From NCBI RefSeq assembly GCF_004010195.1, contig NC_057716.1, positions 10,784,064 through 10,848,063 of the forward strand: a stretch of 64,000 nt of DNA, in the 5' to 3' direction. Origin of the DNA: Chiloscyllium plagiosum (lineage: Eukaryota). Under the pieces are notes generated by a model. The model worked only from the letters and a program-made list of their open reading frames with translations. It did no database searches and was not told where the DNA came from. How positions within the stretch are numbered: the stretch's first letter is position 1; every line of letters starts with the position of its first letter. The position numbers and the translations under genes are program-made. Positions 9,580-63,252 of this stretch are shown one piece after another.

Positions 9580-12500
9580 TTAGAAATCCCTCATGCGCCT
9601 GAAAGATCCGATAGTTGCACTGTAGCCTCCCCAGTCACTGTATCTCCTGTATTCACCGGGCCTCATGAAGTACTGGCGCCCTCTGTAGTTGGGATGCTCA
9701 TAGAAGATCCAGTAACCGTCCATCACATGGCAGGAGTGGATGTCACGGTAACGGAAACGATCGTAGACAGATGGACAGTCATCCATGAATTCCATCATCT
9801 GTCCTCCAAAGTCAGGCCTCTCGTAAATCTTCATTCTGTAGGACCCTCCTCGGTACTGGAATAGAAAGAAATGAAAGATTTATGACATAGCTATGTTGGT
9901 TTGACATTGAGCAGAGTACATGTTAATGATGGGATCAGAGGATCATAAGAACTGGGGTGAGTCGTTGTGCCCTTCAAGCCTGTTCCAACATTCAAGAAGC
10001 TTGTGGCTGATTTGTGATGTAATCCCATATTCTTGCCTTCACTCAATTTCATTTAATAACTTTGCCTAACCAAAATAACCATTGATCTGGCATTACCTTT
10101 TGAAAAAAAAACCTACATCTCCCACTCTTAGCAAGCAGGATGGTGTGCTAAGTTCAGCCTGAAAGATCGAGCTCTAATTTTCTCAACACGTTCCCTATAC
10201 TCCCCAAACAGCAGAAATAATTTGGATGCGAGCATAAGAGGTACAGTTAGTAAGTTTGCAGGCGACACCAAAATTGGAGGTAGTGGACAGTGAAGAGGGT
10301 TACCTCAGATTACAACAGGATCTGGACCAGATGGGCCAATGGGCTGAGAAGTGGCAGATGGAGTTTAATTCAGATAAATGCGAGGTGCTTCATTTTGGGA
10401 AAGCAAATCTTAGCAAGAAGTACACACTTAATGGTAAGGTCCTAGGGAGTGTTGCTGAACAAAGAGACCTTGGAGTGCAGGTTCATAGCTCCTTGAAAGT
10501 GGAGTCGCAGGTAGATAGAATAGTGAAGAAGGCGTTTGGCATGCTTTGGAGAAAGTGAGGACTGCAGATGCAGTCTATCTGTAGATAGTCAGACTATCTG
10601 TAGATAGTCAGAGTTGAAAAATGTGGTGCTGAAAAAGCGCAGCAGGCCAGGCAGCATCCAAGAAGTAGGAGAATCAACGTTTCGGGCATTAGCCCTTCTT
10701 CAGGAATGAGGCTGGTGTGCCAAGCGGGCTGAGATAAAAGGTGTGGGGGGGTGGAGGNNNNNNNNNNNNNNNNNNNNNNNNNNNNNNNNNNNNNNNNNNN
10801 NNNNNNNNNNNNNNNNNNNNNNNNNNNNNNNNNNNNNNNNNNNNNNNNNNNNNNNNNNNNNNNNNNNNNNNNNNNNNNNNNNNNNNNNNNNNNNNNNNNN
10901 NNNNNNNNNNNNNNNNNNNNNNNNNNNNNNNNNNNNNNNNNNNNNNNNNNNNNNNNNNNNNNNNNNNNNNNNNNNNNNNNNNNNNNNNNNNNNNNNNNNN
11001 NNNNNNNNNNNNNNNNNNNNNNNNNNNNNNNNNNNNNNNNNNNNNNNNNNNNNNNNNNNNNNNNNNNNNNNNNNNNNNNNNNNNNNNNNNNNNNNNNNNN
11101 NNNNNNNNNNNNNNNNNNNNNNNNNNNNNNNNNNNNNNNNNNNNNNNNNNNNNNNNNNNNNNNNNNNNNNNNNNNNNNNNNNNNNNNNNNNNNNNNNNNN
11201 NNNNNNNNNNNNNNNNNNNNNNNNNNNNNNNNNNNNNNNNNNNNNNNNNNNNNNNNNNNNNNNNNNNNNNNNNNNNNNNNNNNNNNNNNNNNNNNNNNAT
11301 GCTTTCCTTTATTGGTCAGAGTATTGAGTACAGGAGTTGGGAGATCATGTTGTGGCTGTACAGGACATTGGTTAGGCCACTGTTGGAATATTGCATGCAA
11401 TTCTGGTCTCCTTCCTATTGGAAAAATGTTGTGAAACTTGAAAGGGTTCAGAAAAGATTTACAAGGATGTTGCCAGAGTTGGAGGATCTGAGCTACAGGG
11501 AGAGGCTGAACAGGCTGGGGCTGTTTTCCCTGGAGCGTTGGAGGCTGAGGGGTGACCTTATCGAGGTCTACAAAATTATGAGGGGCATGGATAGGATAAA
11601 TAGTCAAAATCTTTTCCCTGAGGTCGGGGAGTCCAGAACTAGAGGGCAACTTTTTCACGTAGAAGGTGGTACATGTACGGAATGACCTGCCAGAGGATGT
11701 GGTGGAGGCTGGTAGAATTGCAACAGTTAAGAGGCATTTGAATGGGTATATGAATAGGAAGTGTTTGGAGGGATATGGGCCGGGTGCTGGCAGGTGGGAC
11801 TAGATTGGGTTGGGATATCTGATTGGTGTGGACGGGTTGGACCGAAGGGTCTGTTTCTGTGCTGTACATCTCTATGACTCTAGTCTATTATTCTAATTCC
11901 TCTCTATTTTACCTCTTATTCCATTATACAGCGTCAAACCTCCATCACACCCAAGACAAACTCTAATCTCTCATCAGACTAATGATAAGGCCAGGTTAAA
12001 ACCTTCATGACAAAAGCAATCGAAAATGGTTTGTTTTGAATTCAACTGTTGGGGAAGACATGGCTTAGCTCAAGTCTCAGTGGACTCGGAAGTCAAGAAG
12101 ATGATTACTTATCATGTTTGTTTTTATAGATAAATGCCATTGTATTTTCATTGCTTATTTGATTTGAGAGATCTCTAAACTTTGCATCAACTACGAGGGG
12201 AGCAGAAGATAATCTCGGCAGTTTGCTTCAGTGCAATGTTTCCGTGTGAGATAGTTGACATGTGGTGCCAGCCTTAGCTTTAAATAAGTTGCTCTCTGAT
12301 ATAACTTGATGTGTTCTCCCATTATTTTAGTGCCTACTTTACTGTAATTATGTATGCACTCTATATATTGCCCTTCACAAGTGATTTTTCATTGGGATTT
12401 TGTTCAGAGATTGTCCTGATTGATCACCATTTGAGAAGACTGAGAAAAATCCATCCATCAGTCACTCCTTCCCCTTGCTCCTATCAAGATAATGACATTC

Positions 12501-13090
12501 CCATTCATTTTCATCGACAATCAATCAGGATAGTCCTGAGGTACTTACTGAGCAAGCATAGCCTACCAATTTGCAGGCTACAATTTTGAATTCAAATTAA
12601 AATTTCAATTAATTATCAATGAAATTCATTACATGGAAATATGAATTGAAAATCACTACATTTTTCTTGAAATAAATAATTAAACAGACCTTTCCAAATA
12701 TAAGTCAATTGACAAGCTCATTTCATCTGAAGGGCAGTCAATTTATGACTCACATATCGGTAACTGCGACATGATCTGACACAGTCATTGAATCCCATCC
12801 AGCGCTGGTAGTCAGAATATTCTCCCCTGGTCAGAACATACTGGTATCCCATGTAATTGGGTCTCTCATACAGCACCCACCAGTCACTCTCAACACGGAT
12901 GGAGTTACAGCTGCTGAAGTAAGGGGACAGGTCGGCACAGTCACTGCTGCACTCATAGTGCCGCCCCTGGAAGTTCCTGTCCTCGTAAAAGATGATCTGT
13001 GAGGAAAGGAAATGAAACAAACTATTTCTATTTTCTGATGAATCATGGATAAAATGTAAATAATATCAGAATCTACCTCACCTTTCCCAT
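9580..13090 (-). CDS. cryg: gamma-crystallin copy 1 (shark gamma-S1-like/gammaM-type), 3 exons, 175 aa, intact
   Basis: Exon 1 13082-13090 (ATG GGA AAG|gtgag), exon 2 12754-12996 (cag|[20 protein letters not shown]...[10 protein letters not shown]|gtgagt), exon 3 9580-9855 (ttccag|[18 protein letters not shown]...[11 protein letters not shown]). Four Greek-key motifs and phase-0 introns. The symbol is family-level only. Confidence 0.95.
10548..10757 (-). mobile_element. PLE-derived terminal repeat
   Basis: Matches 2816-2985; runs into the N gap. Confidence 0.7.
10676..10703 (-). ncRNA. minimal hammerhead motif in intron 2 of copy 1 (sense to the gene)
   Basis: CUGAAGA-A-GGGC(UAAU)GCCC-GAAA-CGUU; stem I is weak. 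Confidence 0.5.
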
Positions 13091-13146
13091 TTTGAGCTCA
13101 CATTGGTATAGCAGAGCCTGAACATGCTCTCATTCTGGGTGTTCAG

Positions 13147-13222
13147 TATTTATACCTTTCAGAGACAGTTGCAGAAATTGCCTTCGTAATTTTAAACAAT
13201 CTCAAGCACAGATCAGCAAAAA
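13147..13222 (-). promoter_or_regulatory. class A crystallin promoter: TATA box, Sox site, half-MARE
   Basis: TATAAATA at 13147-13154, ATTGTT (Sox consensus) at 13195-13200, and TTTTTGCTGA (AT-flanked Maf half site, TGCTGA at 13213-13218). The same arrangement is present in copy 3. Confidence 0.7.
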
Positions 13223-14873
13223 TAAGCTAAAATGTGTTACAGATATTTCAGCAAATCACCTTCATTGAGAATAATAGGAGTGATTGGCTCTTTGAGTTTT
13301 GCTTTCATGTCATTTTGATTTGTCCTGCAGGAAAAAAAAGGAACAAAAGTCGAGGGACCCTAGTTATACTCAGAATAAAATACACAAAACATTGAACTGT
13401 GAACTTTGCTGAATTGTCATAAGCCAGACAACCTTCTTTTGTTCATTAACTATTACACACACAAATAGAAAAGAGGTGAATCCTAGTCACATTGACTAAA
13501 CATAAAGTTAGACAATTATTCTGACTTTTTATGGCTTGCAAATCAGCAACCATTAGGTGATGGTTCATTGTCACCCCTTTCAACCCCTCCACTATTCCCG
13601 TGTACACACTTAGCCAGCATCTCAACATCTATTCTTTGCAAACTCTAACGCATCTACCCTGCCTCCCATCACTCTTGAGTTCAATAACTCACATTTACTT
13701 CCAGTTTAGCAACATCTCAATTTCAAAATTCTCAATTTGTTTTAAATTATTCCATATCGCCCATCCCTGACATCCCCTTATATTACCATGCAGCAAAAGG
13801 ATGGAATTTGAACATAGTTTTCATCTTTTATTTACAGCCATATTATACACCTACAAACCTACAATCACAGGTAAATCCCCAATTACTGTCTATCATCTGA
13901 ATGCAATTCAATACAAACTTAACATGCAATTAACATATTTTTGTCATGCAGCTCCCCAGTTATCCAAGATGTCCTTGTGTGCTCCCTATTTTGGAGTCTT
14001 GAACAGACTTAGTTTTACTTCCTCCACCCATATAAAGCTGGTCTTCAACTGCTTCGGTCATGAATTTGGAAATTCCTTGCTAAATCACTCCTTCTCTCCA
14101 CAACTCTCTGCTCCTTCAAGAGGTTTTGTGAAAGTTAATTCTTGGATCAAGACTTTGATCATCTGTTGTAGTATTTCCTAAGTGCTTTGATGTCCAATTT
14201 TGGTTGATAATATTTTCAAGCATGTGAACTTAACTCCATATTCTTTCTATATGGTATATATTTTCATAACAATATCTTAAGATCTAAAGAAACTTAAAAA
14301 AAATTCAAATCCCTGATATTTGAAAATAAACTCAAAATGCTGGGTTTGCTCAGTGTGTGGCAGCATCAGTAGAAAGAGAAACAGCAGGATTTGACACCTT
14401 CTGATTATTGTTCACTGAATTGATATCTTAAGAAACTTGAGAAAATGCTCATTTCTCAGTTACGATTTATATGTAAGTGTGAGAGATCTATGAATTAATA
14501 CTCCTACAGATCTGAATAAAATTCTTTAGCAGACATTTTTTTAATGCTGGCATCATATATTTCTGCAGCACTTATAGAGAATTATTTTTAATTGTATAGT
14601 AATTTGATAAATTCCACCGAAATGGTGAGCACCTAGGGTTCAGTCTTTATATTTGGCAGAACTAATTATGCCTACAAAATAATGGTGATATTGCTGGCAT
14701 GGTATTTGAGCTCAATCAATTTGGAACTGTCTGAATATGTTGAATTGGATGGAGGCTGAGGACCATCAAAAATCATGCTGCTGTGAAAATTATTTCACTG
14801 GGATTCGGGCACAAATTGCCTTTTTAGTAATACCAAGAGCATTTATTATACAGCCTGACTGTAAAATATTCAC

Positions 14874-15005
14874 GATGCTGATGAAGGACTTTTGCCTGAA
14901 ATGTCGATTTTCCTGCTCATTGAATGCTGCCTGACCTGCTGTGCTTTTCCAGCACCACTCTAATCTTGACTCTAATCTCCAGCATCTGCAGAACCCACTT
15001 TCGCC
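14874..15005 (+). mobile_element. short PLE-derived element with a perfect 15-bp TSD
   Basis: CTGTAAAATATTCAC at 14859-14873 and 15006-15020. Begins CUGAUGAAGGACUUUUGCCUGAAAUGUC. Confidence 0.8.
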
Positions 15006-15634
15006 CTGTAAAATATTCACATGTAGTGAAAGACTGTATATAGATTGAACTGAGAAGCTACTGAAAATTGAAACATAATAAAATTGGCACGCCAGAGTGG
15101 TGGATTCATATTTTTAATTAAAAGAATAATGTGGAGTGAAGGAAATGCAAAGCTGAACTTAGAACGTGATTATTTTCTTAATGACCATTCCTGTCACCTT
15201 GTGGTATTTTCCACTTCCGCCAGTACTTGGTGACAGGTATGGGTTGTTTTTACTCTGTCTTGGGCCTACCTAGAGATTATTGGTACAGGATTCACCACCA
15301 TTGAGTGTCTACAGAGGAAGCATTGTTATTAGATGGCAAATAGGTTTATTGCATGAGAGCAATGATTACAATTCTATTTCATCAAGTTCAATTACCAGGA
15401 TTTTAAGAAATGGGTATAAATAGATCTTCTCCCTCTGAAAGCTAGCACAATCCAATCAAGTTCTGAGCAACGTGGCTAAGGGAAGATGTGTGGCAGAATT
15501 TTAGCAAGATCCATCTTGATGTCGAGATCATCTGGCCATGCCTCATACCCTTCTTTCAAGCAGCACAACGAGAGTCTCGCTTAGGAACGACGGATTTCTA
15601 AGTGACTCTCATTATTATTTGTTGAACATCTATT

Positions 15635-16828: not shown

Positions 16829-16840
16829 TGTTAAACATCT

Positions 16841-18287: not shown

Positions 18288-20168
18288 TGTTATAGACAAG
18301 GCCAGACCACTCAAAACATTCTTAAGCAGGCAGCCCAGACCGTAACTTTGCAATTTATTTCGGTAATTGATTGCTGGGATCCTTGCTGAGATATTTGCAT
18401 CGTCAATAGTCACAGGTGAGGTGCTGGAAGCATGGAGGTTGGCTAACATAGTACCACTATTTCAGAAAGGTGGTAAGGAAAAGCTAGGGAACTACAGACC
18501 GGTGAACCCGAAGTCGATAGTGGGGAAGTTGTTGGAGCGTATCCTGAGGCACAGGATTTACATCTTTTGGAAAGGCAAGGACTGATTAGGGATAGTCAGC
18601 ATGGCTTTGTGCATGGGAAATCATGTCTCACGAATTAGATTGAGTTGTTTGAAGAAGTAATAAAGAGGATTGATGAGGGCAGAGCAATGGACGTGATCTA
18701 TATGGACTTTGGTAAGGCGTTCGACAAGGTTCCTCATGGGAGACTGGTTTGCAAGGTTAGATCTCATGGAATACAGGGAGAACTAGCCATTTAAATAGAG
18801 AACTGGCTCAAAGATAGAAGACAGAGGGGGTTGGTGGAGGTTTGCTTTTTAGACTGGAGGCCTGTGACCAGTGGAGTGCCACAAGGATCGGGGCTGGGTC
18901 CTCTATTTTTTGTCATTTACATAAATGATTTGGATGCGAGCATAAGAGGTACAGTTAGTAAGTTTGCAGAGGACACCAAAATTGGAGGTGTAGTGGACAG
19001 CGAAGAGGGTTACCTCAGATTATTAAGGATCTTGACCAGATGGGTCAGTGGGCTGAGAAGTGGCAGATGGATTTTAATTCAGATATCCTTCCTATCAGAA
19101 AGATGTTGTGAAACTTGAAAGGGTTCAGAAAAGATTTACAAGGATGTTGCCAGGGTTGGAAGATTTGAACTATAGTGAGAGGTTGAATAGGCTGGGGCTG
19201 TTTTCCCTGGATCATTGGAGGCTGCGGGGGGACTTTATAGAGGTTAATAAAATCATGTGGGGCATGAACAAGATAAATAGACAAAGTCTTTGCCCTGGGG
19301 CCGGGGAGTCCAGAATTAGAGGACATAGGTTTAGGGTGAGAGGGGAAAAATGTAAAAGAGACTTAAGGGGCAACCTATCACACTGAGAGTGATGGGTGTA
19401 TGGAATGTGGTGGAGGAAGTGGTGGAGACTGGTACAATTATAGTATTTAAAAGGCATCTGGATGGGTTTATAAATAGGAAGGATTTACAGGGATATGGGC
19501 CAAGAGGGACTCGATTAGGTTGGGACATCTGGTTGGTATGGACGAGTTGGACCAAAGGGTCTGTTTCCGTGCTGTACATCTCTATGGCTCTACGACTCTA
19601 AGTGTACAATGAAAGTTACCCGGCGTAAGTTAGCTAGGTTGACTACCAGGTTTTAAAACAGACAAAAATGTATTCACAAAATTACACAATGAAACACAAA
19701 GAACAGGTTAAAGAACCCCTACAGAACTCAGTCTATCCAAACTAGACTTAATTATGCTGTTCCGAATATACACAACAGTCTCTATAAGCAAACCCCTTAA
19801 GTACGGTAAAAATGAAACAAAGGCTTACAGGTTGAAGTTAGAAGGGCAGAAGGAGAGACAGCTTAGCAGCCTGTTTCTACACAGCCCACAGCTAAACTCC
19901 CAATAGTTCTGAACTAAACTGTTCAGCCATAGAGCTGGCCATGCCCCGTTGACTTATACAGGTTACTTCTAAAACATAAAAGCTTTGGCATAAAATCACA
20001 TCTGTTTATGTATAAACAAAAAGGCATCTCAAACTCTTTAATCTCTGTACCAGACCGGTCTAACTGGGGTCAGGAGCTCTTTACGACCCCTCTGCAAAAA
20101 AAAAACCCAAGATCACGGTATCCTTGAGAAAAGGAACAGCTTTTAGAAAAAAGGACCAGCTTTGTGAT
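18288..20168. mobile_element. probable solo LTR (18288-18366 plus 19601-20168) split by a CR1
   Basis: Starts TGTTAT and ends GTGA(TG); non-coding and continuous across the CR1. No second copy is in the window. Confidence 0.35.
18367..19600 (+). mobile_element. CR1 LINE RT fragment with an internal deletion near 19085
   Basis: NYRPVN, YMDFGKAFDKVPH, SGVPQGS.LGP and KFAEDTK motifs, then the family 3' UTR. Confidence 0.88.
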
Positions 20169-23913: not shown

Positions 23914-24427
23914 AAGATGTTGTGAAACTTGAAAGGGTTCAGAAAAGATTTACAAGAATGTTGCCAAGGTTGGAGTATTTGAGCTATAGGGAGAGGCTGA
24001 ACAGGCTGGGGTTGTTTTCCCTGGAGCATCAGAGGTTGAGCATCAGACCTTATAGAGGTTTACAAAGTTATGAGGGGCATGGATAGGGTAAATAGGCAAA
24101 GTCTTTTCTTTGGGGTCAGGGAGTCCAGAACTAGAGGGCATAGGTTTAGGGTGAGAGGGGAAAGATATAACAGAGACCTAAGGGACAGCTTTTTCAACAC
24201 AGAGGGTGGTACGTGTATGGAATGATTTGCCAGAGGAAGTGGTGGAGGTTGGTACAACTGCAACATTTAAAAGGCATCTGGATGGGTATATGAATAGGAA
24301 GGGTTTGGAGGGATATGGGCCGGGTGCTGGCAGGTGGGACCAGATTGGGTTGGGATATCTGGTCGGCATGGATGGGTTGGACCATAGGGTCTGTTTCCAT
24401 GCTGTACATCTCTATGACTCTATGACT
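23914..24427 (+). mobile_element. CR1/HER1-type LINE 3' fragment
   Basis: VRVWNDLPEEVV motif and (CTCTATGA)n tail. Confidence 0.85.
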
Positions 24428-27423: not shown

Positions 27424-28608
27424 TTAAAAATCTCTCATTCGCCTGAAAGATCCAATAGCTGAGCTGTAGCCTCCCCAGTCACTGTATCTCCTGTATTCAC
27501 CGGGTCTCATGAAGTACTGTCGCCCTCTGTAGTTGGGGTGTTCATAGAAGGTCCAGTAACCGTCCATCACATGGCAGGAGTGGATGTCACGGTAACGGAA
27601 ACGATTGTAGACAGATGGACAGTCATCCATGAATTCCATCATCTGTCCTCCAAAATCAGGCCTCTCATAAATCCTCATTCTGTAGGAGCCTCCACGGTAC
27701 TGGAATAGAAATGAAATGATATTACTGAGGAAACTACAAATCCATGTTGAGTACTTTTAGAAAAAGAAAAACCTTATGAAGAAATGAATACAGTGAGGCA
27801 CAGTCGAAGACACCAACAATGAGAGCAAAGGTGATATAATTTATTAACATTGATTCAACAGTTCGATTATAATTGAGGTTTCTTTACCAATAACTAGCTC
27901 CTACTTTGCACACATAATCAGTGAAGTGTCTATGAGAGTAGATGAGACTGATATTAGTTGGTGCACTGTTAGAGTGGTGCTGGAAAAGCACAGCAGATCA
28001 GGCAGCATCCGAGGAGCAGGAAAATCGACGTTTTGGGCAAAAGCCCTTCATCAGAATTCCTGATGAAGAGGTTTTGGCCGAAATGTCGACTTTCCTGCTC
28101 CTCGGATGCTGCCTGATCTGCTGTGCTTTTCTAGAACCACTCTAATCTTGACTCTGATCTCCAGTTTCTGCAGTACCCACCTCTGATTGGTTGGTGCACA
28201 CAGACTGAAGTTTAGTAATATCAGTAAAAGTCTAAACTAACTTCCAGTCTAAACTACTGTGAGGAATCTGAGGACAGCTTTGTCTTTCCTGTAATGTCTT
28301 AATTATTTACAGTCAGTGAATGGAGTGTGTACAAATATATTTCTCAACAAACTGGTATCCCATGTAATTGGGTCTCTCATACAGCACCCACCAGTCACTG
28401 TCAACACGGATGGAGTTACAGCGGCTGAAGTAAGGAGACAGGTCGGCACAGTCACTGCTGCACTCATAGTGCCGCCCCTGGAAGTTCCTGTCCTTGTAAA
28501 AGATGATCTGTGAGGAAAATGTATTGGTCAGTTAATAATTTCACAAGTCGGACAATTTTTAATGATAAATAACATACATAAACTATGACTTATCCTTGCC
28601 TTTACCAT
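27424..28608 (-). pseudogene. cryg: gamma-crystallin copy 2, exon 2 truncated
   Basis: Exon 1 28600-28608 (ATG GTA AAG|gcaagg). Exon 2 is present only at 28351-28507 (IIFYKDRNF...NYMGYQ); the last 86 nt and the donor are missing, and read-through stops at TGA 28313-28315. Exon 3 27424-27699 is intact. Confidence 0.85.
27967..28185. mobile_element. palindromic PLE-derived element in intron 2 of copy 2
   Basis: About 85-bp inverted arms centred on CATCAG-AATTC-CTGATG. TSD ATT(A/G)GTTGGTGCAC at 27953-27966 / 28186-28199. The paralogous site in copy 4 (about 50065-50080) is empty. Confidence 0.8.
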
Positions 28609-28662
28609 TTTGAGCTCAGAGTTAGATTATCACCGAATGATTCACTGTTTCAACCAGTTTGG

Positions 28663-28749
28663 TATTTATACGCTGGGCAGTCTCCCTGGATTGTACTTCT
28701 GTCATTGTAATGAATTCAATGGTTTCAAATCAGCACAAAACCAGCAAAA
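28663..28749 (-). promoter_or_regulatory. class B crystallin promoter of copy 2
   Basis: TATAAATA at 28663-28670. TTTTGTGCTGA (Sox-like plus Maf half site) at 28730-28740 is shared with copy 4. Confidence 0.6.
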
Positions 28750-33227: not shown

Positions 33228-33589
33228 GTTTTACCATTAGGGATTACCTTGTAGGCCAGAGATGAGAGGGTTTTTGTTTCCTCTCAGTAGATTATGTTAC
33301 TTTGAAACTCTCTGTTTCAGAATTTGGTGGAGGTGGGAGTCATCAAGTATTTTTAATGCAGACATAGATATAAGCTTGTTAGGCAGAGGAATCAAAGGTT
33401 TTCAGAACATAAATAGATCAGCCACGATTGTTTTGACTTCACCTGACAAAGGAGCAGTGCTTTGAAAGCTTGTGATTTCAGATCAACCTATTGGACTATG
33501 ACCTGGTTGTTGTGTGATTTCTGATGATTTTATTGAATGGCTGAATAGATTGGGCCAAATATCTTAATCCAATTTATTTTCACCTAACA

Positions 33590-34326
33590 CATAGAGTCAT
33601 AGAGTCATAGAAATGTACAGCATGAAAACAGACCCTTCAATCCAATCTGTCCACGCCGACCAGATATCCCAACCCAATCTAGTCCCACCTGCCAGTACCC
33701 AGCCCATATCCCTCCAAACCCTTCCTATTCAGATACCTATCCAAATGCCTCTTAAATGTTGCAATTGTACCAGCCTCCACCACTTCCTCTGGCAGGTCAT
33801 TCCATACACGTACGACCCTCTGTGTGAAAAAGTTGCCCCTTAGGTCTCTTTTATATCTTTCCCCTCTCACCCTAAACCTATGCCCTCTAGTTCTGGACTC
33901 CCCCAACCCAGGGAAACGACTTTGCCTATTTATCCTATCCATGCCCCTCATAATTTTGTAAGCCTCTATAAGGTCATCCCTCAAACTCTGACGCTCCAGG
34001 GAAAACAGCCCCAGCCTGTTCAGCCTCTCCTTACAGCTCAAATCCTCCAACCCTGGCAACATCCTTGTAAATCTTTTCTGAACCCTTTCAAGTTTCACAA
34101 CATCTTTCCGATAGGAAGGAAACCAGAATTGCACGCAATATTCCAACAGTGGCCTAACCAATGTCCTGTACAGCCGCAACATGACCTCCCAACTCCTGTA
34201 CTCAATACTCTGATCGATAAAGGAAAGCTACCAAACGCCTTCTTCACTATCCTATCTACCTGCGACTCCACTTTCAAGGAGCAATGAACCTGCACTCCAA
34301 GGTCTCTTTGTTCAGCAACACTCCCT
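33590..34326 (-). mobile_element. young CR1/HER1-type LINE 3' fragment
   Basis: ORF 33679-34182 is open for 167 aa ([17 protein letters not shown]...). Confidence 0.9.
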
Positions 34327-39921: not shown

Positions 39922-41873
39922 TTAAAAGTCTCTCATGCGCCTGAAAGATCCAACAGTTGCATTGTAGCCTCCCCAGTCACTGTATCCCCTGTATTCACCA
40001 GGTCTCATGAAGTACTGTCGCCCTCTGTAACTGGGATGTTCATAGAAGATCCAGTAACCGTCCATCACATGGCAGGAGTGGATATCACGGTAACGGAAAC
40101 GATCGTAGACAGATGGACAGTCATCCATGAATTCCATCATCTGTCCTCCAAAGTCAGGCCTCTCGTAAATCCTCATTCTGTAGGAGCTTCCTCGGTACTG
40201 GAATAGAGAAAAAACAAATTAATCATTTACTGGATGAGATCATCCCTGGTCAGGCCAGAAATTATTGCCCATTCCTAGTTGTCCAGAGGGCAGCTAAGAG
40301 TCAACCATATTGCTTTGGAACTGTAGGCTGGATCATGTAAGGACAGCAGTTTCCTTTCCTAAAGGACATTAATGAGCCAGATGGGTTTTTCTGACAATGG
40401 CAATGATTTCATGCACAATATTAAATTCTTAATTCCATTGCAGGATTCAAACTCAGATCTCCAGGAGGTTAGTTGGGTCTCAACGTTAATAGCCTAATGA
40501 TAATACCACTAGGCCATCAACTCCTCTGAAATGGAACATGTGTGATGGCTCTATAAACATATGTGTACCAAGTGCAGTAAAATTGTATAAAAGAGGATGT
40601 GCTTTCTACTTGTAACATTATCAGGGAAACTACTTACAGTTTTAATGAAAATTCTCAAGCAAAGGCATTAAACAGCCTGTTTTGTATCAAGCTGTTCATG
40701 TCTCTTTTTGTATGTTGCAGTATTTGGTATTTGGCTCCCAGGCGTTTTGTAATCACTGTTTTGATAATATTCAATACTGTCAAACATTGAATAAAAATTA
40801 CTGTTGATAAAAATAAAACCATGAGCGGAAAAGGTTTTGGAATGAAATTACAGTGCAGCCAGCCTTGGAACTAGAAATGGATATCCAGTTTGTGAATACT
40901 AACTTTGGAAATATGGGAACAAAGAAACAGGAATAGGCTATAGTGCCCTTCAAGCCTCTTCTGGCACTCAATCAGGTCATGGCGGATTATGACCTAAAGA
41001 GTTGCTTCCAATTAGTATGTCCTGGGAAAGAAGTAGAAGAAAGTCTAGAGAGCATTTTGATGCAATGTTTTCTCATGAGTTGTCCAATAAGTAGGTGCAA
41101 GTATGAACATTTGGCTCCTGAAAAAATTCTGGTCCCATTTCTCTCACCTTTCCAGCATGTGGTTTATCATGAATGCTTAGCCACACTATTTATTATTTAT
41201 TTTGTTAATACATGTATCAATGAGAGTTTACACAGAGATTGTTTTGACTGGTCCCTGTGTTTTCTTGGAAGATGAGTCCACCCTGACTCTATCAGTGTAT
41301 CCCAACAGTTCCATCCATTTCTCCATCAAAGTTACAGCTATCAATCAGGCCAGTCCTGAGGAAAATCATGCATGTTACAGCAGAGGCAAATTAGTTACGA
41401 GCAGACGCAATGCAGGAATGTGGAAATGACAAACCACTGAACCTTTTGATGAACTAAAGCAATAGGTGAACAATCCTTTGTAAATATTAACCAAGTGACC
41501 AGCTCATTTTGTCTATAAGGACAACGTTTGACTTACATGTGGGTAGGAGCGACATGACCTGACACAGTCATTGAATCCCATCCAGCGTTGGTAGTCAGGG
41601 TACTTCCCCCTGGTCAGAACATACTGGTATCCCATGTAATTGGGTTTCTCATACAGCACCCACCAGTCACTCTCAACACGGATGGAGTTACAGCGGCTGA
41701 AGTAAGAGGACAGGTCGGCACAGTCACTGCTGCACTCATAGTGCCGCCCCTGGAAGTTCCTGTTCTCGTAAAAGATGATCTGTGGGTAAAGGAAATGAAA
41801 CAAAATATTTCTGTTTTCCAAGTAATTATTAATAAAAGGTGACAACTATGAAGGTTAACCTTACCTTTCCCAT
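39922..41873 (-). CDS. cryg: gamma-crystallin copy 3, 3 exons, 175 aa, intact ORF
   Basis: Exon 1 41865-41873 (MGK|gtaagg), exon 2 41537-41779 (IIFYENRNF...SYPH|gtaagt), exon 3 39922-40197 ([11 protein letters not shown]...RRMRDF TAA). All splice sites are canonical GT-AG. Confidence 0.95.
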
Positions 41874-41930
41874 TTTGAGCTCACAGTTGGTATAGCAGCG
41901 TCTGCACATGCTATCACTCTGGCTGGTCTG

Positions 41931-42008
41931 TATTTATACACATGAGAGACCATTGCAGAGACTGCCTTTGTTATTTTAAACAATCTCAAGCACAGATCAG
42001 CAAAAAAA
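41931..42008 (-). promoter_or_regulatory. class A crystallin promoter of copy 3
   Basis: TATAAATA at 41931-41938, ATTGTT at 41979-41984, TGCTGA at 41997-42002 with a T-rich 5' flank. The block TTTTAAACAATCTCAAGCACAGATCAGCAAAAA (plus strand) is identical to copy 1. Confidence 0.7.
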
Positions 42009-43936: not shown

Positions 43937-44487
43937 TGCACCTGAGCCTTCTTCTGGAGTACTGCATGCAGTTTTGGTCCTCCTGTTATTGGAAGGATGT
44001 CATCAAATTGGAGTGGTTTCAGGAAAGATTTACTAAGATGGTGCTGAGAATGGAAGATCTGAATATGAAAATAGACTTGAAAGGCTGGGACTTTATTCAC
44101 TGGAGCATTGGAGGTTGAGGGGTGACTGTACAGAAATTTATAACATCATCAAGAGCATAGATAAGGGGAATAGCAAAGACCTGTCCCCTATGATGGGGGA
44201 GTTCAAAACTAGGGTACATGTTTTAAGGTGAGAGGAGAAAGATTTAAAAAGGACATGAGGGACAACTTTTTTACACAGAGTGGTTAGTATGTGGAAAAAT
44301 CTGCCAGAGGAAGTGGTGGATGCAGGTGCAGTTACAACATTGAAAAGACATTTGGATATGTTCATGAATAGGAAAGGTTTAGAGGGATGTGGGCTGGATG
44401 CAAGCTGATGGTCTAGTTTAGTTTGGGAACATGGTGGGCGTGGGCTAGTTGGACAGAAGAGTCTGTTTCCATTTTGTATAACTCTAT
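43937..44487 (+). mobile_element. diverged CR1 3' fragment
   Basis: [21 protein letters not shown] motif. Confidence 0.8.
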
Positions 44488-46371
44488 TTAATTTTTTTTG
44501 CATTGATGCTTCCAATATCCTCTGGTGCCACATTCCTTGCAAACATCATAAAAGCTGAGCATTTTTAGGGTGCATGCTTGAGGCTGTACTACCTGCATTG
44601 CCCATGAGGTTTGCGTGCATTGGCTACCATGTGAATGGTGCATAAATTATGTATAACCTGTAGGCTCTGTCAAAAGGACTGGGTGGCCATGCCATTCAGG
44701 CAGCTGTCAAGGTCACAGCTATCCAGAATTTTAGTGCCAGGGCTTTCATTTCAAGGAGCAATTGGGGAAGTGTGTGGCACCAACTCATCTTCGACACATA
44801 AACGCATCCAGGATATCACTGATATCTTTTTATCTAGATCCCATCTGTTACTGTCATTCCCTCATAATTAGCAGAGTCAAGCAACTTGCACAATAGTACG
44901 GTCCATCACCACTGACTGCTCCTGGGTTTAGAACACACCTATGTTACTTTAAAAATGCTCTATCATCAAATGGCAGCATTCATCAACAGAAGGGTCTTCC
45001 ACTCCATCAATGATTAAATTATATCCAATCACAAATGCCAGATCTTGGAGGTCTGTGCAAGATATCCTGGGAAGTGCCATGACTCTTGTCTTCCTGAGAA
45101 TTGACAAGTTTCTGCCTTCTTTCAAGATCCCCAAGCTATACAGAGATACTACTGGAATACAAGGACTGCCCTCAGCAAGCATGGCTCATGACACCTTTAT
45201 AAGACCCTCAGATTGACACAGGATTATAGTGGAACAGACGATAAGCCTGCTTAAAATGAGGTTCAGATGCCTGGACAACTTGAACATAACCTCGTAGGGC
45301 AACCCAGAAAAGTTGTATCAGATTGTTGGGCAGGTGGGGAGGGGAGTGGGGGGTGGTCCCTGGATTCAGAGGAAATAGAGAATTGACAGCAATATTCTGA
45401 GGGAGAAAATACAGACAAGCATCAGGATGTTGACCTGTGTGAGAGAACAATACTTCCTCAAATGTGAAAAGGCAGTGATAGTCTCATTCTACAACAACAA
45501 AATCTGAGGAAGGGTCACTTGACGTGAAACGTAAACTCTAACTTCTCTCCAAAGATACTGCCAGATCTACTGAGCTTTTCCAGCAATTTCTGATTTACAG
45601 CATCCGCAGTTCTTTCAGTTTTTAAATAACCTCATTCTAACGTGCTTCCGGAATGAATGTGCTGGGCTTGTATTTCCTTGAATTGTTTAGCATTCTGCTG
45701 TTAATTTGAGAAGCAACTCCTGCTAGTGCAGAGGACATGTGATCAAAATTACAGTAGATTTATTTACATAGTAACGGGGTCCATCCAATCACATTAAATG
45801 TGGGAGAGTCTTTTCATGCTGAGATTGGAAGAAGAATCGTGAGGCTTGCACTTTGCTGTCCTCACAGTTGTTTTACCAGGTCACTGTTAGACACAGAGGG
45901 CCCTGCAGCAATTCTAAAGCAAATGATTGTAGGAAGGGTCACTGGACCTGAAACATTGACTCTGTTTCTCTCCAAAGATACTGCCAGATCTGCTGAGTTT
46001 CTCCAGCTACTTCTGTTTTTGTTTTAGGTTCCCAGCATCTGCAGTTCTTTGTTTTTTGTTTGTAAGATGTGGCAGTCAGAAGTTAGTCTATGATATGTCT
46101 TTGGTGGAGTTCCCATTCAAGTTGAAATAACACTAAGAATTGGAAAGAATGAAAATCTGCCATTCGAACTACCTTAGACGCTGAGAATGAAACGATAGCC
46201 TGGGAAGAGAAATGAAATTCCTAATCTAAATTCTTCAGTTCCTTGAGATCTTGGCATAATCTTGTTCTTTTTGAGACTAAGTATGGTGATGGCACCTAAA
46301 GGCAGGAAGTACTTGAGGTTGGGCCCAGAACAAGATGTCCTATGCCAATACATTCTTCTCAGCTCATTGAA

Positions 46372-49334: not shown

Positions 49335-50903
49335 CTAGAAATCCCTCATTCGCCTGAAAGATCCGATAGTTGAGCTGTAGCCTCCCCAGTCACTGTATCT
49401 CCTGTATTCACCGGGTCTCATGAAGTACTGTCGCCCTCTGTAGTTGGGATGTTCATAGAAGATCCAGTAACCGTCCATCACATGGCAGGAGTGGATGTCA
49501 CGGTAACGGAAATGATCGTAGACAGATGGACAGTCATCCATGAATTCCATCATCTGTCCTCCAAAGTCAGACCTCTCATAAATCCTCATTCTGTAGGAAC
49601 CTCCTCGGTACTGGAATAGAAATAAGATGTTATTGTAGATATATATTTAATATATACAAAATAGTTAGCCATTGTTCAAATGGACTGTAGGTATCATTCC
49701 CTGAAAAAAAAAGAGAGACACAAACACACATGGATCTTGGTTCTCAGGTACTACCTTATACTACTCATAGGGAGGGAGAGTGAGCAGACCTCCATGAACT
49801 GCTCCAGTTTTCTCAGGGACTGAAAACACACTTGGTATTCATCTGCATTTCACATCGAGCTAACTGTACTAGCCAAATCCCACATATGGCAGTAAACAGA
49901 AAGCAAGACTGATATATAACAAGGCCCATTTGATGACATTAACCATTGGAGCGAAGCTGAGGTGACCTATTATTATCAGTTTAATAGGTTGCTGTGTTTG
50001 AAGCTTCGATATAAACTTGTGCAGGTAATCACAGAAGTGCCTGTAAGAGTACACGTGAGATTAATACTAGTTGAACACAGACTGAAGTTTTTCAATGTCC
50101 ATAAAATTCTTTTGCAATTGCTATCATTTTGTGTTTCTCCAAGTAGGACAATTTGTTTTTTCCTATAATATATATTAAATAGTTAAAATTAGCTGAAGTG
50201 AGTAAGTAAAAGTATATTAATTAACAGATTGTATTCAGTTATCTCTTAGTCCAGCTGTAGATTACCTTATTGTTTCAATTTGGATGGACTGCCATCATGT
50301 GGTGCACAAAGCTAAGTTTGCATAACTATTGCTTTAAGAAACAAACTGCCTAACTTAATCTCAAGATCAGAAACATGTGGATCAGTAAATCAGATCAGAT
50401 GGGTGACAGACAGACAGTCTCCTGCCTGCTAACACCATTGGCAGAAGTTAACTTCTGGCCTGTGGAAATAGCCAATGATTGTACAGACTTGTTGTTCATG
50501 ATTTAAAATTTTGAGCATTTTGATCATTTCTCAGTGTTAGTTTGGGTCAGAAATACAAACCACCAGAAATGACTCACATATGGGTAACTGCGACATGACC
50601 TGACACAGTCATTGAATCCCATCCAGCGCTGGTAGTCAGGATACTCTCCCCTGGTAATTGGGTTTCTCATACAGCACCCACCAGTCACTGTCAACACGGA
50701 TGGAGTTACAGCGGCTGAAATAGGAGTGCAGGTCAGCACAGTCACTGCTGCACTCATAGTGCCGCCCCTGGAAGTTCCTGTCCTCGTAAAAGATGATCTG
50801 TGGAAAGAGATAAATCCTTGTAAATTACTCATTTCTCAAACTCAGCAATACTTTATAGAAAATTCTGACAATATATAAACAATGTAATTCTTGCCTTTCC
50901 CAT
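49335..50903 (-). pseudogene. cryg: gamma-crystallin copy 4, frameshifted
   Basis: Exon 1 50895-50903 (MGK|gcaaga). Exon 2 50578-50797 is 220 nt: 23 nt (plus strand cagaacatactggtatcccatgt) are deleted at about 50655, giving ...KPNYQGRVS* with TGA at 50636-50638 (56 aa). Exon 3 49335-49610 is intact. Confidence 0.85.
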
Positions 50904-50958
50904 TTTGAGCTCAAAGCTTAGTAACTGACTGAATATTTCAGCTCCTCACACAACTTCG

Positions 50959-51045
50959 TATTTATATGCTGGGTAGAAATACCTCTCTGGGCCATACTTT
51001 TGTTATTGTAATGAGCACCATAGTTTAAAATCAGCACAAAAGCAG
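50959..51045 (-). promoter_or_regulatory. class B crystallin promoter of copy 4
   Basis: TATAAATA at 50959-50966 and TTTTGTGCTGA at 51031-51041. Confidence 0.6.
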
Positions 51046-52631: not shown

Positions 52632-52700
52632 CATACACATTAGAATCCACATACTGTTGGGAGGTATCTTGATTCTTTTAGTAATGACTAAAAAAAAATC

Positions 52701-56432: not shown

Positions 56433-56589
56433 TATCACCTCCTCCTCTCTCCAACAATCCACTGGAACACCACCATTTATCGTCCACTGTCATTAGAAAC
56501 TCATGGATTCAAACCTTCTCATATCCTTTTAACTTTTCTTTCAGCTTTGAAGTCTTCTTTCCGAAGAAATGTCAGAATCATAATCAAAA

Positions 56590-57070
56590 AGTGTGGCACT
56601 GGAAAAACACAGCAGGTCAGGCAACATCCAAGACCAGGAGAGTCGAGAGCCAACGTTTTGAGCAAATGCTCTTCATCAAGAATGTTGCAAGGTGGGGGGC
56701 TCAAGTAGGCTGAGAGATAAATGGGAGGGATGCGTGACTGGGGAGAAGGTAGCTAGGAATGTGATAATAGGTGTGATGAAGGTGGGGGGTGATGGTGATA
56801 GGTCGGAGTGGAGGGTGAAACAGATAGGTGGGAAGGAAGATGGACAGGTAGGACAGTTCAACAGGGCGGTGCCAAGTTGGAGGGTTGGATCCAGGATGAG
56901 GTGGGGGAAGGGGAGGTGAGGAAACTGGTCAAGCCAAAATTGATTTAGTGTGGTTGGATGGTCCCTAGTGGAAGATGAGGTGTTTTTTTTCCAGGCGCTA
57001 GGTGGCTAGGATTTGGCAGTGGAAGAGGCCCAGGCCTTGTATGACCATTGTGGAGTGGGAGGGGGGAGTT
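56590..57070 (-). mobile_element. Penelope-like 3' fragment
   Basis: Homologous to 15635-15930 and to the reverse complement of 16300-16828. Confidence 0.7.
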
Positions 57071-59229: not shown

Positions 59230-60022
59230 GATCTTTGGGTGACCATCCCCCAAAGTGGACTTCAGGACAGGCAATATGCAAAGTGGCCAAGCAGAGGCTG
59301 ATGGCCAAGTTTGATACCCATGGGGATGACCTCAATCGTGACCTTGGGTTCATGTCACATTAGAGCTGATCCCACTGCACTATACACTCTCTCTCGCTCA
59401 CACACACAAGCGCACACACATTCTTACTTACTCACATACTCATGCTGATCCTTTCTCATACACAAGCTGTCTCTCATACCCACACACATACATACCCCAT
59501 ACTCACACCCACACACGCACCCTCTCACAGGCTTACCCCATCACACTTACACACATACTTTACAAAGCTTACACGTATGCAAACACATTCTCTCACGTGC
59601 ACTCACACCCACACGCACACACTCACATGCATACTATCACCCACCAGTCTGACTCAAGATTGGGGAGGGACAAACTTTAACTGTGCACCTTTAATACATT
59701 GTCTGAGCTGAGATGGCACCTTTTGTTAGAAAAGCTGACATTATTTTGAGAATGTGACTTAAAAGAAGTTCTTGAATTTGCATACTAAAGAGCCGAAATG
59801 AGCAATACCATTATAAAAGATGAAAGACTTAATCTAGGTTCATCATTTCAGCTGCATGACACTGTAATCTTTTGCTATACATTCTGTGTCTTATGATCCT
59901 GTTTCACAGCTACCTGATGAAGGAGCAGCGCTCTGAAAGCTAGTGCTTCCAAATAAACCTGTTGGACTATAACAAATTTTTAATTTTGTCCACCCAATCC
60001 AAAACCGGCTCCTCCAAATCAT
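59230..60022 (+). mobile_element. PLE family-2 3' end with a CA-rich 3' UTR
   Basis: KQRLMAKFDTHGDDLNRDLGFMSH-like C-terminus, degenerate (CA)n at 59385-59640 and the hammerhead at 59911. Confidence 0.65.
59911..59945 (+). ncRNA. minimal hammerhead ribozyme motif
   Basis: UAC-CUGAUGA-A-GGAGC(AGC)GCUCU-GAAA-GCUA-GUG; same family as 52799. Confidence 0.65.
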
Positions 60023-61365
60023 AGCCTCAACAAGACTTTGAAAATGTTTATCACATTTTCTCTGAGTTGTCTTTACTTTAAGAAAAACAATTCTAGCTTC
60101 CCCATCTATCCATGCAACTAAAATCCCACGCTTAAAACTATTCTCCTGAATCATTTCTGCAACGTCACTAAAATTAAAAATGCTTCCTCAAGCATTTTAC
60201 CCAGTATAAAAAGTAATACTCCAGGTTAGACTAAACAATGCATACACTATCAACCTTTTTATAAACCTTCTGATGAATCTGCCTTTCTGGTCACTTTTTC
60301 AATCACTACTGACCCTTTCAATAATTATTGCTCATATATTTCCAGCTCTAGTAATTCCTGTACTTCCTTTAGAATTGTACATTTTTTCTTTTTTAAATTG
60401 ACTCCAATCATTTGTCCCCACCAAAGTCAATCAATTCACCCTTCTCAGGATTGAATATCCACCCATCTCACCTACCTACCCAGATCTTCTTAAAGTCTGT
60501 AACCACTCTCCTCACAATGTAAAATACTTCTGAGTTTGTATGATCTGCAAAGGGTGAAATTATACTGTGCAAACCCAAATCTAGTACATTATTATATGTA
60601 AAGAGAAGTTGTCAAAAACATCTGAATGTCCTTAGTGCATAGTTACAGGCAGTCTGAAAAAATCCTGTGCACTACGACCTTCTGTTTCCTTTAACTTTGT
60701 CAACTTCATATTGATTTTGTCACTTTCTCTTCTTTTTTTCTGTGAATTTTAGTTTTGCTGCATGTCTAATAAGTGTTATTCATCAATCTCTATTTGGTAC
60801 TTCACATAGACCATATCATTCACATTCCACTCATCAATCGTCTGTGTACTTTAACCAATAAAGTTCAATCAAGACAGATAAACATCTGTCACCTTTAACC
60901 TACTAATGCTGCCTTTTTTTTCTATTTATGTATAAGTGCCAAGCAACTGGAAATTGTACTTCAAATAAGCTAAATGTTTTGCTGCCACTAAGGTTAAACA
61001 GATTATCCTTTAGATGCTGGATTTGCACTTAACCCCATTTTTTGTCAAAAGATGCACCATTTGCAACTCTTCAGTTCTTTGTCACTGTTTCTGGATCTAA
61101 GGAGGATTGGGTACCATAGGCAGTACCATCACAAAATCTACCTTTAATTCCCTTGGCATCCTCATTACGATTGTGAGATTCATTCTCATTTTCACTAAGT
61201 CTATATATTAAATTAACAATGACATGGGCAACATTCATTGCTAAATCTGCATATATTTGTTAACTGAGAGAAGAGATGTAAATTAAACAAGAATTCCACG
61301 AGAGTTGTATTGATCTCCACAGAAATGCTTAAATGAATGAGAATAATACTGTGAAGTTCAGAATG

Positions 61366-61371
61366 TTTATT
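61366..61371 (-). terminator. polyadenylation signal of copy 5
   Basis: AATAAA about 49 nt after the stop codon. Confidence 0.7.
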
Positions 61372-61419
61372 ATTTTTAAGAATATTCAGCAAAATAAAAT
61401 CATATTTATCAAGAGCAAT

Positions 61420-63252
61420 CTAGAAATCCCTCATGCGCCTGAAAGATCCGATAGTTGAGCTGTAGCCTCCCCAGTCACTGTATCTCCTGTATTCACCGGG
61501 CCTCATGAAGTACTGTCGCCCTCTGTAGTTGGGATGTTCATAGAAGGTCCAGTAACCGTCCATCACATGGCAGGAGTGGATGTCACGGTAACGGAAACGA
61601 TCGTAGACAGATGGACAGTCATCCATGAATTCCATCATCTGTCCTCCAAAGTCAGGCCTCTCATAAATCCTCATTCTGTAAGAGCCTCCTCGGTACTGGA
61701 ATAGAGAGAAATGAAACATCGTGAAGCAGCTATAATTGTATCTATGAAAAAAAATTGTAAAGTAGTTGCGTTATGCTTGTAAAATTGGCTGCCATTTTGA
61801 TGAAAATTCTCCACCCAAAGCATTAAGCAGTCTTTTTTGCTTCTAAATATGGGAAGGACTATCGTATATGTTCAACACTTTTTTGGTTTTCATGGATGTT
61901 CAGCAGTATGGTATCAGTTTTCGTCCTCAAATGTAAGAGCCGCAGCATTTTGAATTGAAATTCTACTCAAGACAACTGTGAGAAGTGGAAACCAGCATGT
62001 GGTATCTGAATATTGATTTGATATTCCGCTGATTATTCACATTTAATGGGAAGACAGTGAAAGGACTCAACCCTTTGAATCTCTTCAAACATTTCATGAG
62101 ATCTTGGCTGATCTGTCACCTAAATCCCCGTGTGGTGTGTAGTGAGTTACTCTTGGCTGCACTACTTAGGAGTGAAGTAAAAGAAAGTCTGGGGCCCTTG
62201 TCCATGCAGTATTTTGTGGCAAGTTGCTCAAAATGTCATGTTATCTCTATCAATCAAACGTTTGAAGACTGGAATCATTCAAGTCAGATTTCAAACAGGT
62301 TTCCAAATCTTGATTAATTTAAATATTCAGGCAAACTATTTCTTTATTTTAAGGATCATTTTACTCGGGGCTTGCTCAGAGATTGTGGTGCTGGAAAAGC
62401 AGAGCAGACCACGCATAATCCAAGGAGCAGGAGAAGGGCTTATGCCCGAAAGTTCAATTCTCCTGCTCCTTGGATGCTGCCTGACCTGCTGTGCTTTTCC
62501 AGCACCACACTCTCGGCTCTGATCTCCAGCATCTGCAGTCCTTACTTTCTCCTTGCTCAGAGATTGTTTTGACTGGTCCCTGTGTTTTCTATGGAGGATG
62601 AATGGAAATCTGCCCATTCCCCGATCAGTGTATCCAGCAGTTCCATTGATTTCTCGCAAAAGTTACAGCAATAAATCAGGTCAGTCCTGAGGAATTGTTA
62701 TTGTGAATGATATGGCATTGACAAACAATTAAAACTTACAACTTTCGAATTTGGATGAATGATGAAGAATTTGATGAAGGGAAAGTGGGAATGCAAAACA
62801 ATTGGAATAGCTTTGATTCAATCCATAAAGGAAAAAGAAACCAACAATTACAAGCATAAATTGATTGACCTGTTCATTTTGTCTGTAAAGACAATGACTT
62901 TATGACTCACATGTGGGTAGGAGCGACATGACCTGACACAGTCATTGAATCCCATCCAGCGCTGGTAGTCAGGATACTCTCCCCTGGTCAGAACATACTG
63001 GTATCCCATGTAATTGGGTTTCTCATACAGCACCCACCAGTCACTCTCAACACGGATGGAGTTACAGTGGTTGAAGTAAGGGGACAGGTCGGCACAGTCA
63101 CTGCTACACTCATAGTGCTGCCCCTGGAAGTTCCTGTCCTCGTAAAAGATGATCTGTGGAAAGAGATAGATTTGTGTTATAATCTTGTCAAGCTAGGAGG
63201 TATATAATGAACAATTCCAAACAAATTCTTAAATCTCTCTTGCCTTTCCCAT
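61420..63252 (-). CDS. cryg: gamma-crystallin copy 5, 3 exons, 175 aa, intact, GC-AG intron 1
   Basis: Exon 1 63244-63252 (ATG GGA AAG|gcaaga), exon 2 62911-63153 ([32 protein letters not shown]...SYPH|gtgagt), exon 3 61420-61695 ([11 protein letters not shown]...RRMRDF TAG). Confidence 0.92.
62387..62551. mobile_element. palindromic PLE-derived element in intron 2 of copy 5
   Basis: Perfect 16-bp TSD CTTGCTCAGAGATTGT at 62371-62386 / 62552-62567, with inverted arms. Confidence 0.85.

Follow-up and report, generated by a model that had tools for sequence, protein, structure and literature searches.

Coding exons of a gamma-crystallin cluster in Chiloscyllium plagiosum are likely kept alike by repeated gene conversion among old duplicates

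How can neighboring genes be nearly identical in their coding exons when the introns between those exons align no better than shuffled sequence? The question is raised by a 64,000-nucleotide stretch of the Chiloscyllium plagiosum genome (assembly GCF_004010195.1, contig NC_057716.1, positions 10,784,064 to 10,848,063), hereafter the window, which holds five minus-strand, three-exon gamma-crystallin copies at the coordinates reported in an initial annotation of this DNA. The present analysis places the five genes in a tandem cluster of ~32 genes that is older than the split from two related species, and suggests that their coding exons have likely been kept alike by repeated conversion. Specifically, exons compared within this species point to DNA-level nonallelic gene conversion among old duplicates as the probable cause. 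The initial annotation had proposed that old duplicates were overwritten by short-tract conversion, and this proposal is supported by the orthologues of copy 5, a plateau of synonymous divergence, excess site incompatibility, mosaic blocks, and incongruent trees.

The initial annotation had counted five paralogues; the cluster holds ~32 copies over ~430 kb, with 32 exon-2 loci, of which 29 have a partner exon 3 of matching type. When the genome was searched with exon 3, 30 of the 30 matches listed fell on one contig, within a span of ~430 kb. The copies are numbered g01–g32, with window copies 1–5 being g08–g12, and at least 10 of the 32 are broken. Statistics refer to 24 “core” copies, or to smaller subsets where stated; outside the core are g01, g25, g31, and g32 (more divergent), g21 (truncated), g02 (a distinct old gene), and g14 and g17 (without a paired exon 3).

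Exon similarity and noncoding divergence

In exon 3, copies 1 and 5 differ at 10 of 276 nt (six synonymous differences, three nonsynonymous, and one in the stop codon), and their longest identical run is 115 bp (9708–9822) and contains five CpGs, exactly as first counted by hand. This run is not in itself evidence, as 10 randomly placed differences would give it with an unadjusted P of 0.045 and the pair is the best of 10. The evidence is instead the proportion of differing synonymous sites (pS), which for the window pairs is 0.085–0.169 over exons 2 and 3, set against introns at shuffle level. Across all 10 window pairs, exon 3 differs at 7–20 of 276 positions, and gapped identity over intron 1 and the ends of intron 2 is 0.57–0.73, versus 0.59–0.68 in shuffles. 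The reported collapse of identity within about 10 nt of the splice sites was borne out: ungapped identity reaches background 6–12 nt past each splice site and immediately past the stop codon. The introns are at shuffle level, promoters (0.59–0.80) and 3′ flanks alone among the noncoding parts of the window keep weak homology, and mean identity is 0.71 in both the 5′ (23 genes) and 3′ (20 genes) untranslated regions (UTRs), with shuffles at 0.60 and 0.64. Because the UTRs are only 0.71 identical, the homogenized unit is the coding sequence and not the exon.

Synonymous divergence (dS) does not depend on how far apart two copies are in their promoters. In bins averaging promoter distances of 0.28, 0.56, 0.91, and 1.23 (13, 20, 50, and 191 pairs), dS is 0.135, 0.137, 0.136, and 0.136; the two closest pairs, which complete the 276 pairs of the 24 core copies, have a dS of 0.097. 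The Spearman correlation is 0.00, and a version based on alignment identity gives a rho of 0.03 (P = 0.66). Thus, in the comparison with intron and flank divergence that the initial annotation had proposed, dS lies far below intron divergence and is flat against promoter distance: neutral divergence sits on a plateau (dS ~0.135), uncoupled from duplication age. Slowed synonymous change from constraint would be expected to yield a slope, not a plateau; plateau behavior is standard theory (PMC3924837).

The window features are as follows.

9580–9855, minus strand: copy 1 exon 3, coding part (C-terminal beta/gamma-crystallin domain, including the stop codon); 9708–9822 is the 115-bp run identical with copy 5
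Between exons 2 and 3, minus strand: copy 1 intron 2 (2898 nt), with an assembly gap at 10758–11298 and interspersed repeats inside
12754–12996, minus strand: copy 1 exon 2 (N-terminal domain, 243 nt)
13082–13154, minus strand: copy 1 TATA box (13154), short 5′ UTR, 9-nt coding exon 1 (ATG 13090), GT donor
27424–27699, minus strand: copy 2 exon 3, frame intact
28346–28507, minus strand: copy 2 exon 2, broken, with only the first 159–162 nt; the last third and the donor are gone
28600–28670, minus strand: copy 2 TATA box, 5′ UTR, exon 1 (ATG 28608), GC donor
39922–40197, minus strand: copy 3 exon 3
41537–41779, minus strand: copy 3 exon 2
41865–41938, minus strand: copy 3 TATA box, 5′ UTR, exon 1 (ATG 41873), GT donor; promoter ~80% identical to the copy 1 promoter
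49335–49610, minus strand: copy 4 exon 3, frame intact
50578–50797, minus strand: copy 4 exon 2, its frame broken by a 23-nt deletion near 50654
50895–50966, minus strand: copy 4 TATA box, 5′ UTR, exon 1 (ATG 50903), GC donor
61420–61695, minus strand: copy 5 exon 3 (PF00030, E 9.7e-35)
61696–62910, minus strand: copy 5 intron 2 (1215 nt), at chance level versus most paralogues and 94–96% identical to its counterpart in two related species
62911–63153, minus strand: copy 5 exon 2 (PF00030, E 5.4e-31)
63244–63317, minus strand: copy 5 TATA box, 5′ UTR, exon 1 (ATG 63252), GC donor

Each window gene has a TATA box, a 9-nt coding exon 1, an intron 1 of 85–97 nt, an exon 2 of 243 nt, an intron 2 of 0.6–2.9 kb, and an exon 3 of 276 nt. 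Each of the two large exons of copy 5 encodes one PF00030 (Greek key) domain, the nearest solved chains are gamma-B and gamma-M7 crystallin (E ~5e-50), with beta-crystallins appearing only from 4e-30, and the top shark proteins carry the name “gamma-crystallin S-1-like” or “M2-like.” Closest among the named proteins are the “gamma-crystallin S-1-like” entries of bamboo and epaulette sharks, 95–100% identical over the C-terminal domain. CRYGA-F share the three-exon structure (PMC3554465). With two Greek key domains, this three-exon layout, and a closer match to gamma than to beta chains, the window genes are confidently predicted to be gamma-crystallin genes.

GC splice donors are usually rare. 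Here, 11 of 29 copies open intron 1 with a noncanonical GC donor (in the window, at 28599, 50894, and 63243) and the other 18 with GT, and intron 2 has a GC donor in g26 and g27. Interspersed repeats of several families, at 65–96% identity, occupy positions 909–1636, 8077–8741, 11301–11882, 19076–19605, 23914–24427, 33586–34326, and 43955–44488 of the window, and others lie at 2815–3260, 14875–15008, 27969–28180, and 62432–62553, the last being inside copy 5 intron 2 and having a contig depth in the millions. The repeats sit at nonequivalent places in the five gene units and thus were inserted after the duplications.

Age of the copies and traces of exchange between them

Age was read from copy 5, to which contigs of four public sequencing runs were aligned: X1 from organism A, which is the same species, and X5, X7, and X12 from two other organisms, B and C. 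Contig pieces on a SINE-like (short interspersed element-like) repeat at 62432–62554 and exon-only pieces of other copies were excluded, and a few dozen exon bases were included. Over its 3′ flank, intron 2, and promoter, copy 5 differs from long single-copy pieces of the same-species run at 13 of 1866 letters, from those of organism B at 84 of 1773 (X5), and from those of the two runs of organism C at 83 of 1828 (X7) and 61 of 1444 (X12). Counterparts of copy 5 intron 2 and promoter in the two related species differ by 4.2–4.7%, which indicates that the intron evolves at an ordinary pace and that copy 5 predates the splits. The age of the copies is therefore supported by orthologous noncoding DNA that is 4–5% apart while paralogous introns are at chance level. 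In the 3′ flank of copy 5, at 61273–61289, the window lacks a 19-nt stretch that is present in organism C and apparently in X1 (19 gaps), which is either a polymorphic indel or an assembly slip.

The promoters carry a history of their own. In a tree of 350-bp promoters from the 24 copies, clades are well supported and the median path length is 1.14 substitutions per site; 91.5% of 351 promoter pairs outscore all five of their own shuffles. Promoter and 3′-flank similarity agree with each other (Mantel 0.39, P = 0.0003, 23 copies), and exon pS follows neither (Mantel –0.21, –0.01, and 0.11, all nonsignificant). Within the cluster, separate exon and noncoding trees, which the initial annotation had suggested comparing, are incongruent: the promoter, exon 2, and exon 3 alignments each reject the trees of the other two (approximately unbiased test, P < 0.01, 19 copies). 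The exon trees are nearly star-shaped, so this test is supporting evidence only.

Mosaicism was assessed with our own site-incompatibility, run, and tree tests. In a set of 19 near-intact copies, all four gametes occur at 47.9% of informative site pairs, making these incompatible. This value was reached by none of 200 clonal simulations on the fitted tree (general time-reversible model with invariant sites and gamma-distributed rates, GTR+I+G), in which fitted invariant and fast sites were allowed (mean 34.4 ± 3.5%, maximum 47.4%). Multi-base blocks are common to copies of unrelated promoter clades, as at exon-2 positions 232–234, where three adjacent changes occur in g03, g04, g08, and g11. 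The edge gene g01 is 50 codons off the majority, yet in exon 3 it matches g20 without a difference over 173 nt (P = 0.0013 for the synonymous-only run). The genes at the two ends of the cluster, g01 and g32, are natural chimeras of old and homogenized sequence, with divergent exon ends and N-terminal domains and a majority-type exon 3 core. Synonymous diversity is 0.21 within 15 nt of the exon edges and 0.055–0.08 in the interior (edge, <30 nt, versus interior, P = 0.008), an approximately threefold rise which suggests that adjacent nonhomology hinders exchange.

The broken copies bear on the same question. The two in the window (copies 2 and 4) carry 5–6 nonsynonymous codon differences from the majority, like intact copies, which upholds the statement that broken copies are equally similar; it does not extend to two other broken copies of the cluster, with 20 and 24 such differences. 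Decay is uneven between exons in two of five broken copies (g07, P = 0.034; g19, P = 0.011; both uncorrected), which as a sign of conversion is suggestive only. When 464 kb were searched with profiles for strongly decayed exon copies, the 14 weakest matches per exon among those listed were cross-domain matches to exons already identified or ~40-bp remnants; this absence may be due to deletion rather than conversion. One dismembered copy lies at ~10.862–10.874 Mb of the contig, with an orphan exon 3 that has a 21-nt deletion, and a 38-nt exon-2 remnant beside it; a further 61 nt of exon 2, donor included, lie on the other strand at a distance of 12 kb.

Near-identical tracts also occur outside the coding sequence. 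The genes g22 and g30 lie 84 kb from each other in inverted orientation; their promoters are identical over 306 bp, inside a 600-bp stretch of 99–100% identity, and elsewhere the two are 75–96% identical. Genes g26 and g27 share ~1.2 kb at 99–100%, from intron 1 into intron 2, amid 70–90%. The latter near-identity appears real, although the assembly is uncertain there: an unplaced 1237-bp contig (G000:C27141), which matches the g26 and g27 tracts over its whole length at 99.0% and 99.1%, is either an allele or a collapsed second version. At ~10.97–11.06 Mb the cluster changes strand between g22–g24 (minus) and g29–g30 (plus), and g22/g30 and g23/g29 are related by promoters and flanks across this inversion, an old inverted duplication that still exchanges tracts. 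The exon confinement first described is thus the usual outcome and not a rule, as tracts enter promoters and introns too wherever homology is left, and the restriction to coding exons is best understood as a restriction to sequence that has remained homologous.

Collectively, these data suggest a mechanism. Strong purifying selection on the protein would keep two homology islands of 243–276 bp in every copy, and short tracts would be copied from any island to any other by germline recombination or repair. Lacking such selection, introns, UTRs, and flanks would have drifted under the similarity that conversion needs and so escaped, and the outcome would be a balance of mutation and conversion at ~12% synonymous difference. 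In pairs that are still 75–85% identical in noncoding DNA, tracts of 0.3–1.2 kb would extend into promoter or intron. The effect may be that one abundant lens protein is encoded by many interchangeable genes, among which new variants can spread.

Points of weakness and competing explanations

Several observations weigh against conversion among old copies, or limit what can be claimed for it. Age is established for copy 5 only, and the deep promoter distances are rough, as they come from 350-bp alignments of barely alignable DNA. The hallmark between species, paralogues closer than orthologues, would be partial at best, with dS ~0.13 and species 4.5% apart. Exon 2 distances show a weak correlation with those of exon 3 (Mantel 0.34, P = 0.012), and a significant synonymous-identical run is found in only one of four edge genes, those of g32 (P = 0.31), g25 (P = 0.25), and g31 (P = 0.11) being nonsignificant. 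Given the gaps and the third, unplaced 99% version of the g26/g27 tract, the assembler may have produced some of the mosaics. Incompatibility declines very little with distance (P = 0.33; P = 0.06 without CpG sites), which fits very short tracts and also recurrent mutation at few free sites. Finally, GC content at third codon positions (GC3) is 0.64 in the core copies, against 0.44 in g02, 0.47 in a distant gamma-crystallin gene (at 1.2 Mb), and 0.38–0.39 in the background (copy 5 versus g02, Fisher P = 0.0002); raised GC3 is a described mark of conversion (PMC2720389), but it could come from codon selection instead.

The last two points also favor the alternative that survives best, though we regard it as improbable: old duplicates without conversion, in which selection acts on the protein and on most synonymous sites (through translation, mRNA folding, or splicing of a lens gene with very high expression), and a few free sites toggle to give both plateau and homoplasy. 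The C-terminal domain is 87–98% identical across sharks, rays, and chimaera, which suggests strong constraint on the protein throughout cartilaginous fishes. However, all four bases occur at four-fold sites (C 388, T 352, A 320, and G 210), and different codons for the same amino acid are fixed at different positions, so that fixation is position-specific and not amino-acid-specific. The divergent gamma-crystallin g02 (G000:C7:10710350–10714444; protein identity 68% in exon 2 and 61% in exon 3), which lies within the cluster and appears to have escaped homogenization, departs from the majority at 17 of 35 four-fold sites and at 24 of 63 two-fold sites; it is near saturation at the same sites, which therefore can vary. 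Moreover, the simulations already included invariant and fast sites, and selection of this kind leaves unexplained the multi-base blocks between copies with unrelated promoters and the promoter and intron tracts.

A recent duplication hotspot, in which young copies have rapidly scrambled noncoding DNA, is the reading that Mayeur et al. 2024 (PMC11979771) gave to the gamma-crystallin clusters of catshark, white shark, skate, and elephant shark, whose species clades they took for recent duplicates without one-to-one orthologues. The grouping of proteins by lineage is in its favor. We aligned 138 of 249 fetched, hand-picked cartilaginous-fish records with 21 cluster copies, excluding four possible products of the cluster itself; in this biased sample of 90% clusters, the nearest neighbor lies in the own group for sawshark in 14 of 14 cases, chimaera in 13.5 of 14, horn shark in 18 of 22, and batoids in 15.9 of 19, and for epaulette shark in 0.8 of 8 and brownbanded bamboo shark in 1 of 6, both of which mix with this cluster. 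Some residues are lineage-wide, such as aligned position 56, which is T in the cluster and all carpet-shark groups and mostly S in other sharks and rays. Such grouping fits conversion and lineage-specific duplication alike. The broken copies, at least 10 of 32, and the inverted block g22–g24 versus g29–g30, a real segmental duplication, also speak for a hotspot. In contrast, no pair in the cluster is young over its whole unit: the best low-copy blocks (g22/g30 and g26/g27) average 85% identity, a divergence three times the 4–5% between species. With the copy 5 intron little changed between species and dS flat against flank distance, a hotspot is very unlikely to account for this cluster.

RNA-templated conversion, in which reverse-transcribed crystallin mRNA overwrites exons only, is equally hard to credit. 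A dS below intron divergence serves as a criterion for complementary DNA (cDNA) donors in fungal ribosomal-protein genes (PMC6993855), and this is what the cluster has. A cDNA donor nevertheless fails four predictions: the UTRs (0.71) are not homogenized; intron 2 is kept in 29 of the 29 copies with both exons, with no processed copy among the 30 and 72 own-genome matches listed, both lower bounds; the 3′ exon, exon 3, is the less uniform one (pS 0.159 versus 0.084 in exon 2); and tracts occur in untranscribed promoter DNA. In catshark, gamma-crystallin expression is eye- and embryo-biased, with lens expression shown for catshark relatives (PMC11979771). The DNA-level route that the initial annotation favored is thus supported by the promoter and intron tracts and the unhomogenized UTRs, but not by the argument it had used, the shared CTATTCCAG acceptor: this is present in five of five window copies and exact in just 8 of 24 core copies, and splice-site selection could account for it.

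An assembly artefact would have exons collapsed or shuffled among copies by a short-read assembler. The assembly has 101,977 contigs, with 17,121 N in the 464 kb of the cluster region, and some exons may have been threaded chimerically. Summed contig depth over the exons (30–55 times intron depth in X1, which fits ~30 copies) is not a copy number and was not used. In four of four independent runs, from three organisms, long single-copy contigs stop 14–45 bases inside the copy 5 exons, as expected from graph reasoning if exon words in the reads are common to several copies. Of the letters private to copy 5, 63068 and 63106 recur at single-copy depth in X1, and 61681 and 63071 do not show there. 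Although the fragmentation, the gaps, and the unplaced 1237-bp contig 99% alike to both g26 and g27 would suit it, an artefact is very improbable as the source of the pattern, given 24 core copies all distinct in exon 2 and in exon 3, these contig ends and the two recurring letters, and catshark copies only ~5% apart in a PacBio-based assembly (PMC11979771).

Wider reading and comparison with known systems

DNA-level conversion among old duplicates may have a wider bearing. It is conceivable, though we hold it somewhat less probable than its opposite, that the species clades of shark, ray, and chimaera, and perhaps all aquatic jawed vertebrate, gamma-crystallins are not recent duplication bursts but ancient positional orthologues in a 30-gene conversion network linked by two exon islands, with broken copies at the same plateau and residues sweeping whole clusters. 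If this is true across sharks, then duplication dates and “expansions” taken from coding trees of fish gamma-crystallins are too young, orthology has to be assigned from introns and promoters, and the division of lens expression among copies is to be studied by promoter clade, since the promoters keep the true history. Thirty short-exon copies would also be a natural measure of the minimal homology that sustains conversion in a slowly evolving vertebrate genome.

The process itself is already known, including in mammalian gamma-crystallins, and what is new is a large, clean instance in a known family. Gene conversion among mammalian gamma-crystallin genes was reportedly described by Plotnikova et al. 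in 2007, and den Dunnen et al. are said to have found in 1986 that rat gamma-crystallins evolve in concert through exon 2, with only exon 2 converted and the second introns divergent. Shared with the present cluster are the family, three exons, and exon-level homogenization with, reportedly, divergent second introns. In contrast, mammals have about six gamma-crystallin genes and this cluster ~32, and in rat only exon 2 is said to be affected, whereas here both exons are, exon 2 more so. Benedict et al. reportedly observed in 1996 that concerted evolution of mosquito Hsp82 is limited to the reading frames. Reading-frame-limited concerted evolution was likewise described by Cornman 2009 in Drosophila cuticular protein arrays (PMC2793513), and in both insect systems, as here, homogenization ends at conserved coding limits and is weaker toward the ends. 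The insect cases are pairs or small arrays; the present one is a large vertebrate cluster with two short exons and unrelated introns of 0.6–3.7 kb.

The mammalian pairs BMP8A/B, DDX19A/B, and TUBG1/2, in which conversion has been long-lasting (PMC2720389), and the clustered protocadherins (PMC2764143) share with this cluster a mosaic of concerted and divergent sequence, raised GC3, and trees that mimic independent duplications. Unlike here, the tracts of the mammalian pairs include whole introns, by design of the search that found them, and for elephant shark protocadherins only limited conversion was reported (PMC2764143). A literature search, with subscription journals outside its reach, found no work on gene conversion within the gamma-crystallin clusters of sharks or fishes, and “gene conversion” and “concerted” have no occurrence in the main text of PMC11979771. 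The loci described there are nevertheless the nearest known counterparts in kind: clusters with tens of gamma-crystallin genes, of which ~30 differ by about 5%, in species-specific clades, with pseudogenes and more divergent old copies in the same cluster. The present case contradicts the recent reading of such clades as recent duplicates, in that here, on the evidence of noncoding DNA, the copies are old and orthologues exist for at least one of them.

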